This document shows positions 21,040-27,685 of a DNA stretch of 64,000 nucleotides, in pieces. The notes under the pieces are model-generated. The model was not told where the DNA came from and did not search any database. It saw only the letters and a list, made by a program, of their open reading frames with translations. The DNA is from Dictyostelium discoideum (lineage: Eukaryota), in contig CM000151.3 of NCBI GenBank assembly GCA_000004695.1, positions 8,000,001-8,064,000 of the forward strand, read 5' to 3'. The position numbers and the translations under genes are program-made. Numbering within the stretch: position 1 is the first letter of the stretch; the number at the start of each line of letters is the position of its first letter.

Positions 21040-24000
21040 TTAAAATGTTTCATTAGAATTTTGATATTCTTCATTTAATTGTTGGTTTTGTTGTTGTTGT
21101 AGTTGTTGCTGTTGTTGATCTTGTTGTAGAGGTTGTTGGAATAAATATTGATTATCCATTTGGAATGATAAAAATGGTTTATTATTATTATTATTATTAT
21201 TATTATTATTATTATTATTATTATTATTATTATTATTATTATTATTATTATTATTATTATTATTATTATTAATATTATTATTATTATTATTATTATTATT
21301 ATTATTATTATTAATATTATTAATATTATTATAATTATTATTATAATTGTTTTCATCTTGATTATCTTGGAAATTGAAATCAAAATTTGAAGTTAATAAA
21401 GGTGGTGTTGATAAATTTGTTGATAATGTTGTATTTGTAGTTGTAGTGGTGTTTGTTAAAATTGGGGAATTACTATTGGAAGATAATAATGAAGAAGAAT
21501 TTAAAATTGGGGAATTATTATTTGAATTTGAAAATAATGATGATTGTTGTTGTTGTTGTTGTTGTTGTTGTTGTTGTTGTTGTTGTTGTTGTTGTTGTTG
21601 TTGTTGTTGTTGTTGTTGTTGTAGTGGTGGTGTAATTAAACGATGATCATATTGACAATTTACATTTGTGCAACCAGTTGGTGAATTATAATATTTACAA
21701 GGTTCAATTTTTAAATCATGAGAATAAGTACATGAATCACCTTTTGCACATGATGAAGTTTTAAAATATTTACAAACTTCAGTTGGTTTTCTAATTTCAA
21801 CAGGACCTTCATGAATGAATGTACAATCTTTACCTTTTTTACACATACCAATCTTATAAAAATTACAAACCACTGTTAATTCTTTCTTTTCTTTTGGTTG
21901 ATTAAAATCAATACCTTGATATAATTTTGCAGTTTCAATATTTGCTGAAGAAGTTGGTGATGTTAAATTTTTAATATTCTTTTTATTATTATTATTATTG
22001 TTTTTATTTTTATTATTCTTCTTTTTAGGTGACTTTTCTTTAACTTTCTCTTGAATTTTCTTTTTATTTTCTTCAATTTTAACTTTCTTTGTTTTCTTTT
22101 TCTTCTTTTTATTCTTTTTATTAACTTTATTACTATTATTATTATTATTATTAATATTATCATCATTATTATTATTATTATTGTTGTTATCAATTTCATC
22201 AGAGGTATAATTATTATCATTTTGAATTAAAGAATCTTCACTATTTAATTTTAATTTTTTATTATTTTCATTATCATCATCTGAATCTGAATCTGATAAT
22301 AATAATGTATTACCTCTCTTTTTACTTGAAGTTGATATTGATTGATCAAATGATGTGTTTGTATCATCAATCATTAATTCATCTTCATCCTCTCCGTCTC
22401 CATCTTCATCGTCTTCTTCATCGTCTTCATTGTCATCATCGTCTTCATCATCATCTTCATCGTCAACATTTTCATTATTTTCATCATTTTCATCATCTTG
22501 GTCATCATCTTGATTATCATCATTTTCTTCTTCTTCTTCCTTTTTATTATCACTTAAAATAGTTTCTTCTTTATTTGTGATGATTGGTGATGATGATGAT
22601 GAAATTTCTTTTATAATATTTACAATATCTCCATTTTCAATATTTGAATTACTAATTTGATTTGATTTTACTAAAGCTGGTACTGCAGTAAGAGGTTGCA
22701 ATACAGTATTTGTATCTGTAGAAGATTCTGTGGAAGATTCTGTTTCAGAGGATGTTATTTTTGATGATTCAGTAGTATTAGAAGTTTTTGTTGTTGTTGT
22801 TATTGTTGTTGTTGTTGTTGCTGTTGTTGTTGTTGCTGCTGCTGCTGTTGTTGGAGTTTTAATAGATTGTTGTTGACCAATTAATGGTAAAGGTTTTGAA
22901 AAGATATTTGATTGTGGTGGTAACTTTTTCACAGAAGGTATGATTGGTTGTTGATTCATTAATTTAACGCCAAATGATTGAGAATTTAAACTTTTTGTTT
23001 GTACTTTCTTAGTATTGACAATAGTTGGTGGTAATTGATAGATATCCAATAATGGTTTCTTTGGTGGTGCATTTGATGGTATAGAAGAATTTGCTGCTGC
23101 AGTTGCTTTATTGCTACCACCAATCAATGGTAAAGGTTTTGAGAAAATATTTTGGCCAGTTGGTGGTGATGATTTTGGTATTGGTTTGCTAATTGGTAAT
23201 TGTGGTTGTTGTTTAGATGGTGATTGTATTTGTGTTTGACCGATCAATGGTAATGGTGTGGCGAATGGATTCTTTTTCTTTTCGGTAGTGGGTGTAGTGG
23301 TAGTATTAGATGTAGTATCACCAATTGGTATTGTAGTAGTAGTATTTGATACGATAGGAGAAGATATAGGGGATTGGGAAGATGGTGATATGGTGGAAAT
23401 AGAAGTAGTGGTAGTAGTGGTGTTGTTGATGCTATTATTTGGGATTGGTGATGGTTGACTAATTAATGGAAGTGGTGCGAAAATATTCTTTTTCTTTTCA
23501 TTGATTGAAGTAGTGGGTGTTGTTGTTTGTATTGATTGTTCAACATTTTTTGGTGAATCTATTTTTGCTGTTGTCTCTATTATCGTATTTGTTATGGATG
23601 GCGAGGATTGTTTTTGTCCAATTAAAGGTAATGAGGAAAATAAATTCTTTTTCTTTTCCACTATTTCAACATCAGGTATGGGACTCGTAGTTGTTGCCAT
23701 GATTAAATTAGAATTAGTGGATGGTGGAATGACTATAGTTGAATCTGTTGATGGCATTGGTGTTGTAGTTGTTGTAGAAGGTATCATATTATCGACAGGT
23801 GGAGCTATAGTTGAAGAGGATAATGGTATTGTTGTTAGGGTTGGTGTAGATGTTGGTGTAGATGTTGGTGTAGATGAAGGTGAAGGTGTTGTTGTTGTTT
23901 GTAAAGTTGCAGTTGCAGCAGCCAATGTGGCCGATATTGAATTATTTACAGAAGGCTTAATTGAAGCAGAAGCAGCAGCCAATGTCGCAGAGATTGAAGA

Positions 24001-26228: not shown

Positions 26229-27685
26229 CTAAAAAAAAATAATAAAAAAATAAAATAAAATAAATATTTTAGAATTGATATAAATAATTATAAAAATATA
26301 TATAATTTTTATTTTAAAATTTATATACCAACCTATATAATAATGGACTATTTATAATATCTAATAATAATTTTAAAATTTTAATTTTAATTGTATTTGT
26401 GCAAAATGTGGATGAAGTAAGTTCGGTAATGCTTTGAACACCAACTTTAACAATTCTATTTTATATAAATAATAATAATAACAAGTGTCATTAAAAAAAA
26501 AAAAAAAATTTTATAGTATTTTGTTTTTTTTTTTTTTTTATTTTATTTTTTAGATTATATGAAGTAAATTCAAATAAATCAAATGAGGAATTTTTTTTTT
26601 TTTTATTTATTTTTTTTTAATAAAATCAAAAGTTAGAAGTACTATAAAAAGAAATCTCAAAAATAAACAAAACAAAAGGAAAAAAAAAAAAAAACAAAAA
26701 AAAATATGACTAAATTCAAAAATCTTTTTTTTTTTTCTTTTTTCCTTTTTTGTTTTGTTTATTTTGTTTTTATTTATAAACATTACAAAAAAGGAAAAAA
26801 AATGAAGAGATATTTTTGAAAGATAAAACGAAAAAAAAAAAAAAAAAAAAAAAAAAAAAAAAAAAGATTCACGCCTATAGTCTTGATGAGATGTTTCAAT
26901 TAATGAGAAACATGTTGTAATTGCTTCATTAAATTCCTCTTTCTTTTAATTTGTAGTTGTTGTAATTGTTCTTGTTGTTGTTGTAAAGTTAGTGAGGTGT
27001 TATTATTATTATTATTCGAAATTGAGGAAGTGGTGATATTTTGTGGTTGTTGCATTATTTTTATTTTTTTAATTTTTATTTAAAGTATTATTATTTTTGG
27101 TGAATATTGTTAAGAGAGAAGGGGGCAAAGAGGCATATATAATAGTATATCCACAAAAAAAAAAAAAAAAAATTTATTTGTAGAATGGTTTATAAACAAA
27201 AACAAAAAAAAAACTTTTTAAAAAAAAAAAAAAAAAAAAAAAAAAAAATAAAATTATAAAAATTTTTGAAAAAAAAAATAAAAAAAAATAAAAAAAAAAA
27301 AAAAAAAAAAAAAAAATAAATAAAAATAAAAATAAATTAAAAAAATCATTTGTTGATCAAAAAATTTTTTTTTTTTTTATAATAACAAAATATCACATTT
27401 ATATAAAAAAATAAAAAAACCTTTTTATAATTTTTACTTAATATTGTATTAATATAGAAAAAAAAAAAAAAATATTAAAAAAAACAATTGTTTTTTTTTT
27501 TTTTTTTTTGTAGTTGTTGTATATTATAATTTTTTTTTTTTTTTTTTTTCTTTTCTTCTTTCTAAAAAAAAAAAAAAAAGCATAATAATAATTATTATTA
27601 TTTATTTGTGTATATATAAAAAAAAAAAAAAAAAAAAAAAAAAAAAACTCCATATAATCTATTAAAAAAAAAAAAAAAAAGAAAT

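Follow-up and report, generated by a model that had tools for sequence, protein, structure and literature searches.

Tristetraprolin makes multivalent contacts with CCR4-NOT and PABPC1 through its disordered regions, and Pumilio, Roquin, and Unkempt have been named as further RNA-binding proteins that bind multivalently (PMC12350847). This study describes a gene of Dictyostelium discoideum whose predicted product appears to follow the same logic, i.e., an RNA-binding module combined with several short segments of disordered sequence that would recruit an effector. The gene lies on the minus strand, between positions 21040 and 27055, of a window of 64,000 nucleotides (nt) (GenBank assembly GCA_000004695.1, contig CM000151.3, forward-strand positions 8,000,001 to 8,064,000), to which all coordinates refer unless another locus is named. 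Its product of ~1,800 residues comprises a HEAT-type alpha-solenoid, a second helical domain, a disordered region with seven copies of a short motif, and three CCCH zinc fingers. The likeness to tristetraprolin, Pumilio, Roquin, and Unkempt is one of functional analogy only: the motif sequence differs, those proteins do not contain a HEAT solenoid, and nothing found here links the product to CCR4-NOT.

Other described systems resemble single parts of the protein. The zinc fingers (ZF) are similar in sequence and spacing to those of CPSF30 (CPSF4/Yth1) and ZC3H4 (KIAA1064). However, proteins of the CPSF30/Yth1 type have five tandem CCCH fingers within ~30 kDa, whereas here three fingers lie at the C-terminus of a ~1,800-residue protein and the likeness is limited to ZF2-3; moreover, both CPSF30 and ZC3H4 lack the N-terminal HEAT solenoid of the D. 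discoideum protein. That solenoid shares 9-16% identity with importin-beta/Kap123, Rpn1, Integrator subunit 4, and the symplekin N-terminal domain, a likeness of generic fold and not of family. Lastly, the proline-Leu-Ile core of the motif is like that of two sets of MYND-domain ligands, namely, the PPPLI motif of SMRT/N-CoR (ETO/DEAF-1 MYND), which is bound by the ETO MYND domain (PMC3555993), and the PXLXP ligands of BS69.

It is proposed here, with moderate confidence, that the locus is a single four-exon gene with a conserved GC-AG intron, that it belongs to an uncharacterised protein family, and that its product is a putative RNA-binding scaffold that would recruit a partner multivalently. 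Below, the motif array and its conservation are presented, followed by the domain architecture, the gene model, and the family.

A sevenfold motif in the disordered region

The minus-strand open reading frame (ORF) at 21040..25629 encodes 1529 residues and contains seven copies of the motif N-[ILP]-F-[SA]-x(0-1)-[PS]-L-P-L-I-[GS]-Q, six of them strong and one degenerate. A Lys or Asn precedes the motif Asn, so that the D. discoideum form can also be written [KN]-N-[ILP]-F-[SA]-x-(P)-LPLI-[GS]-Q. From the N-terminal side, the copies are EKRNLIGKALPLIATQ (24256..24303, the degenerate copy), KKNSIFSKSLPLIGQP (24013..24060), EKKKNLFSSLPLIGQK (23611..23658), EKKKNIFAPLPLISQP (23452..23499), KKKNPFATPLPLIGQT (23233..23280), TGQNIFSKPLPLIGGS (23113..23160), and PQSNIFSKPLPLIGQQ (22870..22917), all coded on the minus strand. 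The first copy has lost its Phe, which is retained in the Dictyostelium firmibasis counterpart, NNLFGKALPLIS. The original prediction had recognised the seven copies, with ALPLIATQQ listed last and with a regular spacing. Their number stands, but the degenerate ALPLIATQQ copy is in fact the first, and the spacing is irregular: the LP of the copies falls at ORF residues 452, 533, 667, 720, 793, 833, and 914, which leaves gaps of 81, 134, 53, 73, 40, and 81 residues. No further copies were found in the coding-length ORFs of the window.

The array exceeds by far what composition would produce. In 50,000 composition-preserving shuffles of the 580-residue region, LPLI occurred at most twice (seven times in the protein) and F.{1,3}LPLI at most once (six times in the protein); moreover, six of the nine Phe residues in this region sit in motif copies. 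The motif is therefore statistically real, its counts being far beyond chance.

Two further conserved linear islands lie in the disordered region. The first, SKPVDPRLEKR (24295..24327, minus strand), is immediately N-terminal to copy 1, and its DPRL core also occurs in D. firmibasis, Tieghemostelium lacteum, the dictyostelid protein P0010, the Balamuthia protein P0009, and the metagenomic protein P0015. The second, PKKPLLDIYQLPP...SLNSQSFGVKLMNQQPIIPS (22933..23064, minus strand; GVKLMNQQP within SFGVKLMNQQP), lies between copies 6 and 7, is kept in D. firmibasis, and appears as I[YF][EQ]LP...LG.KLM in T. lacteum and P0010. Both may be additional docking sites.

Conservation of the motif across species

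All seven copies occur at corresponding positions in D. firmibasis. Between the two species, the motif 12-mers are 90% identical, as against 56% in the remaining disordered sequence; the corresponding values are 95% in the HEAT region and 98% in the CCCH fingers. Every dictyostelid orthologue examined (seven species) has an array of three to seven copies, which always sits between the helical domain and the fingers, and the dictyostelid-wide motif approximates [NS]-hydrophobic-F-[SAG]-x-P-L-x-x-[IL]. T. lacteum has six copies (N[ILV]F[SA][KN]PLPL[LI]), Acytostelium subglobosum four (e.g., SLFAPLPLIS), and P0010 (e.g., NPFSKPLAMIG), Heterostelium album (e.g., SIFGKPLALI), and Cavenderia (N[IP]F[SA]Q[AG]LPKLL) three each. 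Outside the dictyostelids, one of the paralogues of Balamuthia mandrillaris, P0021, has nine copies of the form [DE]F[FS]xPPP[LI][ILV], again between the helical domain and the fingers. A motif hidden Markov model of 13 positions, built from 40 instances and scanned over 124 family and generic HEAT proteins, gave no match in the other family members or in the generic HEAT proteins. The array thus appears to be a dictyostelid feature, and the Balamuthia array is possibly homologous to it and possibly convergent.

It could be argued that the repeats have no function and arose neutrally, through internal duplication or the expansion of low-complexity sequence in a Ser/Thr/Pro/Asn-rich region. The region is indeed compositionally biased, has other internal repeats such as ISATLAAASASIKP / ISATLAAATATLQ, and is rich in microsatellite-like tracts. 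However, the copies vary in their synonymous codons (TTA/CTT/TTG, CCA/CCT, ATT/ATC, GGT/GGC/GGA), the sequences that flank them are unrelated to one another, and Tandem Repeats Finder found no periodic repeat across them, which argues that they are not recent DNA duplicates. The difference between 90% and 56% conservation, and the survival of the copies in all dictyostelid groups examined, although the linkers have turned over completely, are also at odds with neutrality, and this explanation is considered very improbable. Functional short linear motifs lie in disordered regions and are conserved above their flanks in orthologues, and both properties are found here; because these are joined by persistence through complete linker turnover, the peptide has the sequence hallmarks of a functional linear motif. 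Its selective conservation is taken as established at the level of sequence comparison. That the motif serves multivalent docking, as the original prediction proposed, is supported by the identity values, the synonymous codon variation, and the arrays in all dictyostelid orthologues examined and one Balamuthia paralogue, although the docking itself is still a matter of inference.

Comparison with known motif classes

The copies were compared with known motif classes, with regular expressions after the ELM resource and, for the MYND ligands, also with the definitions in PMC3555993. None of the seven D. discoideum copies matches the MYND patterns PP.LI or P.L.P or the PP2A-B56 pattern LxxIxE (in LPLIGQ, Gln stands where Glu is required), and one matches the EH-domain pattern NPF, the others reading NIF or NLF. 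In the other species, LxxIxE is matched by one to two copies each in T. lacteum, H. album, A. subglobosum, and Cavenderia, and NPF by one copy each in D. firmibasis and Cavenderia and by two in P0010. The cyclin RxL, EVH1, SH3, SxIP, LC8, clathrin-box, nuclear export signal, and calcineurin classes were also considered, by eye or regular expression, and none fits the conserved positions; a loose RxL pattern trivially matches K-P-L-P, the Lys of which is not conserved.

The known class that comes closest is the proline-rich MYND ligand. The motif could be a lineage variant of such a class, most likely of the PPPLI type, which would recruit a chromatin or co-repressor factor containing a MYND domain. 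The Balamuthia P0021 copies, F[FS]SPPPLIT, match PP.LI in five of nine cases, each time as exact PPPLI, and the D. discoideum PLPLI is one residue away from the PPPLI of SMRT/N-CoR (PMC3555993). However, PP.LI occurs in no dictyostelid copy, P.L.P is matched in the dictyostelids by a single copy (one of the three in Cavenderia), and the dictyostelid copies read PLPLI, PLPLL, or LPKLL. Furthermore, the conserved upstream half, N-x-F-[SA], with its invariant Phe, is foreign to MYND ligands. Recruitment of a MYND factor is accordingly regarded as improbable, and the motif is treated below as a putative docking motif outside the classes tested.

Domain architecture

The original prediction described a HEAT-like N-terminal region followed by a Ser/Thr/Pro-rich segment with the motifs, an acidic block, a basic block, and three CCCH fingers, and this layout was borne out; the architecture as such is considered established. 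The N-terminal HEAT-type alpha-solenoid (~430 residues) is coded by 25138..26942 on the minus strand, over exons 1-4. Sequence searches with this region returned only sub-threshold HEAT, adaptin, or TAF6_C matches, with no Pfam or Protein Data Bank sequence match better than E = 2e-3. AlphaFold2 modelling of the Cyanophora homologue from a 21-sequence alignment gave an all-helical solenoid (predicted local distance difference test score, pLDDT, 90.6; predicted template modelling score 0.81), in which tandem antiparallel helix pairs form a superhelix, as is typical of HEAT/ARM alpha-solenoids. A second helical domain, YQQLLQLCKLFSP...SFIQKIKQSL (24502..24813, minus strand), is conserved across the family. 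No Pfam family covers either the HEAT part or this domain. In the model of the full-length T. lacteum orthologue, the solenoid (residues 12-410), the helical domain (467-580; pLDDT 76-91), and the fingers (1066-1145) are confidently predicted, whereas residues 584-1065 have a pLDDT of 28-38. The disordered region of the D. discoideum protein (~600 residues) likewise lies between the helical domain and the fingers.

The presence of a peptide-binding type of fold and a hydrophobic motif array on one polypeptide raises the alternative that the motifs bind the protein's own HEAT solenoid and that no external partner is involved. In cis, this would result in autoinhibition; in trans, in self-association or condensates in which the copies would serve as stickers. 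Extended hydrophobic peptides are typical ligands of HEAT/ARM solenoids, the nearest folds are those of importin-beta, Kap123, and adaptins, and the solenoid and the array occur together in all dictyostelids. However, in the T. lacteum model every motif copy is undocked and lies in the low-confidence segment, which is weak evidence, and taxa without the motif (Cyanophora, metamonads, and Rhizamoeba) retain a highly conserved HEAT domain, which indicates that this domain does not depend on the motif. Binding to the own solenoid is considered unlikely, and docking of an external partner is preferred.

C-terminal to the array, an acidic Asp/Glu block (22363..22545) and a lysine-rich block (21967..22128) precede the three CCCH fingers (21643..21867), all on the minus strand. 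The lysine-rich block resembles a nuclear localisation signal by composition only and would probably target the protein to the nucleus. The fingers (ZF1, 21811-21867; ZF2, 21718-21774; ZF3, 21643-21699) have the CCCH (C3H1) pattern C-x7-9-C-x4-6-C-x3-H, with units at ORF residues 1255, 1286, and 1311, and score above the Pfam gathering cut-offs of PF00642 (zf-CCCH; 28.0 bits, cut-off 20.5) and PF14608 (zf-CCCH_2; 27.9 bits, cut-off 25.8). The match to PF15663 (zf-CCCH_3; 17.7 bits, E = 0.004, profile positions 8-104 of 110) falls below its cut-off of 31. Since precomputed matches to PF15663 also exist in the orthologues, stronger in H. album and weak in T. lacteum, a distant relationship to zf-CCCH_3 is possible. 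The closest solved chains are ZF2-3 of CPSF30 (E = 3e-10) and KIAA1064 (E = 8e-7), and it is by this homology that the fingers are predicted to bind single-stranded RNA.

The C-terminal tail of the protein contains a polyglutamine tract of 26 perfect CAA codons and a polyasparagine tract of ~57 mostly AAT codons (21179-21348 and 21544-21622, minus-strand coding), which read (TTG)26 and (TTA)57 on the plus strand. Both are largely absent in D. firmibasis, where tail identity is 38%.

Gene model and splice junctions

The window is very A+T-rich, with coding islands of 25-39% G+C. Within it, comparison with orthologues establishes a single minus-strand gene of four exons. Exon 1 (26875..27055) starts with the ATG at 27055, codes for MQQPQ...LQIKRK and then, in the -1 frame, for EEFNEAITTCFSLIETSHQDY, and ends in the phase-2 split codon AG/A. 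Each of its two halves is kept in D. firmibasis, each in its own frame, and its N-terminal helix can be aligned to the homologues of Cyanophora, Cavenderia, and Tieghemostelium. Intron 1 (26456..26874; 419 nt, 87% A+T, phase 2) is of the GC-AG type, with AG/GCGTGAAT as donor and AAATAG/A as acceptor. Exon 2 (26333..26455) codes for (R)IVKVGVQSITELTSSTFCTNTIKIKILKLLLDIINSPLLY(S), which can be aligned to IVKQAIMGLTHI... in distant homologues. Intron 2 (26229..26332; GT-AG, 104 nt, 94% A+T, phase 2) is followed by exon 3 (25822..26228), which codes for the HEAT repeats SKTVIRYAIKG...GYASCPTG, and by intron 3 (25734..25821; GT-AG, GTATGT...AAAAAG, 88 nt, phase 1). Exon 4 (21040..25733, stop codon included) covers the remainder of the HEAT solenoid and, after it, the second helical domain, the disordered region, the fingers, and the polyglutamine/polyasparagine tail.

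The evidence for this model is comparative. All three intron positions and phases are the same in Cavenderia, and the orthologue alignments run unbroken across all three exon junctions. The splices that join 25822 to 25733 (GT, phase 1) and 26333 to 26228 (GT, phase 2) yield a continuous homologous protein. At the first junction, the 3' end of exon 1 reads ...GAC TAT AG followed by GCGTGAAT, i.e., a GC donor; in D. firmibasis, T. lacteum, and Cavenderia fasciculata, the corresponding codon holds an AG/GCATGAAT donor, with no GT alternative there, and the annotated T. lacteum protein is already joined at this GC junction (HQD-IS-VVKV). A GT donor 2 nt downstream (C/GTGAAT) was considered and rejected, since it needs the acceptor AAAG/TT and would drop the conserved residues IVK; the other three species, which carry GCATGAAT, have no GT at that place.

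GC-AG introns make up ~1.3% of introns across 61 eukaryotes (PMC3033335). It was also observed that the GC donor lies within a 10-nt block, AGGC[AG]TGAAT, which is kept in four dictyostelid species (D. firmibasis locus L002, 3181-3190; locus L003, 657-666; C. fasciculata locus L001, 10328-10337), an unusual degree of donor conservation where introns are ~90% A+T.

The stand-alone alternative, namely that the ORF 21040..25629 is a gene of its own starting at MENVYQ and that the upstream exons belong to another gene, draws on the in-frame ATG at 25629 and on the frame offset between the ATG at 27055 and the downstream exons in the window. However, the frame is open 5' of the ATG at 25629 up to a canonical acceptor at 25734, and every homologue, from Cyanophora to Cavenderia, extends 230-280 residues N-terminal of MENVYQ, in register with exons 1-3. 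MENVYQ itself falls inside a conserved HEAT repeat (DPW[KR].E.VY.VQ). A stand-alone gene is thus hardly credible, and the single four-exon gene is retained. This agrees with the original prediction of one large gene extending 5' of MENVYQ: its phase-1 donor at 25821 and exon 26228..25822 are supported by in-frame homology, as is its candidate exon around 26340-26460, which proved to be exactly 26455..26333. Its upstream junctions had been left unclosed because intron 1 is of the GC-AG type and exon 1 has a 1-nt frame discrepancy. With the conserved GC-AG first intron, the 5' end is now closed by orthologue comparison.

A frame discrepancy in exon 1

The ATG at 27055, proposed in the original prediction as a candidate initiator, is by comparison with the orthologues the ancestral start, but in the window one A is missing at 26940-26942, which sets this ATG off by 1 nt from the reading frame of the remaining exon 1. 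At this A-run (26940..26942, minus strand), the window reads GAAAG where D. firmibasis has GAAAAG, one A more. The exon-1 DNA alignment, with AAAAG-AAAGAGG in the window and AAAAGAAAAGAGG in D. firmibasis, contains this one responsible difference; the exon is otherwise near-identical in the two species, and in the conserved frame the few differences 3' of the gap change no amino acid. Just 3' of the ATG, in another frame, lies the coding sequence of the conserved N-terminal helix, KEEFNEAITTCFSLIETSHQDYR. As it stands, the ATG reads into a stop after 51 codons, and a reconstruction with one A added gives a single open coding sequence of 1801 codons.

The missing A is either an error of the source sequence (homopolymer) or a very recent strain-specific mutation. 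Exact look-ups of the 1529-residue ORF and of the 51-residue ORF in public assemblies gave no match, nor did a metagenome scan for the exon-1 indel region. Two ways around the frameshift were considered. An intron inside exon 1 was rejected, since there is no GT between the ATG and AAAAG and the composition of the segment is coding-like; a programmed -1 frameshift or transcriptional slippage is unlikely, given that no X-XXY-YYZ heptamer is present and the A-run is just 3-4 nt long.

Protein family, orthologues, and neighbouring genes

A word-indexed search with the N-terminal region returned only four relatives, and an exhaustive profile search over 1.84 billion representatives returned 114, of which 37 were below 1e-30. 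Many relatives share the order of a conserved N-terminal HEAT domain, a long variable or disordered region, and three CCCH fingers. Members of the family come from the dictyostelids D. firmibasis, T. lacteum, H. album, A. subglobosum, and C. fasciculata, from B. mandrillaris (two paralogues), Rhizamoeba, and Pyxidicula among the other Amoebozoa, from the metamonad Barthelona, and from the eukaryote TZLM3-RCL; homologues with the HEAT domain only are found in the glaucophyte Cyanophora and the metamonads Monocercomonoides and Blattamonas. The relatives are named only 'CCCH-type zinc finger-containing protein' or 'hypothetical' and none is characterised, and literature searches with peptide strings and with Dictyostelium plus CCCH found no study of the gene. 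One clear family member, P0005 (XP_049852270.1), is assigned to 'Schistocerca gregaria' on an 85.8-kb contig; because the contig is short and no other animal has the family, it probably stems from a protist symbiont or contaminant and not from insect DNA.

The orthologues EFA74704.1 (H. album), KYR02664.1 (T. lacteum), RB653_003154 (KAK5578201.1; D. firmibasis), and that of C. fasciculata are alike in the order of HEAT domain, helical domain, motif array, acidic and basic blocks, and three CCCH fingers; in D. firmibasis, the intron positions, the GC donor, and the neighbouring 2OG-oxygenase gene match as well. They differ in copy number (3-7) and in motif flanks, which vary by species. Several of their annotations are faulty. 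The Cavenderia orthologue (L001 10001-15268, GL883006.1) is annotated as two genes of 459 and 925 residues, the first of which does not splice out intron 1 and terminates in another frame; the single ORF at 11516-15268 of this locus codes for the rest of the HEAT domain, the three motif copies, and the fingers. The D. firmibasis model KAK5578201.1 (L002 3001-8756) joins ...EEFNEAITT to LGVQSITEL and thereby omits the conserved CFSLIETSHQDYR(I/V)VKV, skipping 17 conserved residues, apparently owing to a predictor unable to handle a GC donor. In the H. album model (GL291019.1), a tRNA-Cys(GCA) gene (L004 1358-1431, minus strand) lies inside an annotated 'intron', a sign that an unrelated ORF farther upstream may have been fused into the model as its first ~130 residues.

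At the D. discoideum locus, the divergent neighbour at 27686-28565 (plus strand) codes for a Rictor N-terminal domain (PF14664, E = 3e-47). Between this neighbour and the ATG at 27055 lie ~630 bp of ~7-15% G+C, presumably a shared bidirectional promoter region. The convergent downstream neighbour at 19782-20888 (plus strand) codes for a 2-oxoglutarate (2OG)-Fe(II) oxygenase (DIOX_N + 2OG-FeII_Oxy), and a 2OG-oxygenase gene also adjoins the orthologue in D. firmibasis.

Discussion

In the mechanism proposed here, the CCCH fingers would tether the protein to RNA, and the motif copies would each bind the same globular partner, independently and with low affinity. The array could then recruit several copies of this partner, or bind one partner with high avidity, and the HEAT solenoid, together with the small helical domain, would be a protein-protein platform that engages a second component. 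Multivalent recruitment of a partner is inferred from the anatomy of the protein and by analogy with other CCCH RNA-binding proteins.

Several observations weigh against this proposal. No partner of the motif was identified, and the D. discoideum copies fit none of the known classes tested, apart from the single NPF match. The motif is absent from most family members outside the dictyostelids, so that it is not essential to the core function of the family, and convergence might account for the Balamuthia array. The charge that flanks the motif is basic in D. discoideum and acidic in Balamuthia and T. lacteum. Two motif-only searches of a database of 5.8 billion proteins (a staggered-triplet profile and a 70-residue concatemer) returned nothing at E <= 10; because they also missed a known positive, T. 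lacteum KYR02664.1, which a local control placed at E ~0.04, they are uninformative on the occurrence of the motif in other proteins. RNA binding is predicted by finger homology and nuclear localisation by composition. Finally, the missing A in exon 1, if real in the strain, would preclude a full-length protein from the ATG at 27055.

A bolder version of the proposal is offered more tentatively. N-hydrophobic-F-[SA]-x-P-L-P-L-[IL] might be an undescribed class of docking motif, kept as an array of three to nine copies throughout the history of the Dictyostelia, and possibly for longer, from an ancestor shared with Balamuthia onwards. It would then define a lineage-restricted RNA-regulatory scaffold of HEAT and CCCH modules that loads several copies of an effector onto RNA, in a family that has no members among animals, fungi, or plants.

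Architectures of this kind, in which an RNA-binding protein bears linear motifs within disordered sequence, are well known, and the finding has no bearing on a long-standing open question. What is new is I) a gene model closed at its 5' end, including the GC-AG intron and the frame discrepancy; II) what appears to be a protist-restricted HEAT-CCCH family, for whose HEAT domain there is no Pfam model; and III) comparative evidence that points to the repeated peptide being a selected linear motif outside the known classes tested. For genome annotation, this entails corrections with respect to a conserved GC-AG intron beyond the reach of standard gene predictors, the 1-nt discrepancy in exon 1, and faulty orthologue models in three genomes. 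For the biology of the organism, the sevenfold motif peptide (e.g., KKKNIFSKPLPLIGQQ) could be used as bait for the partner and, as Dictyostelium is genetically tractable, would offer a handle on an uncharacterised, deeply conserved protist family.

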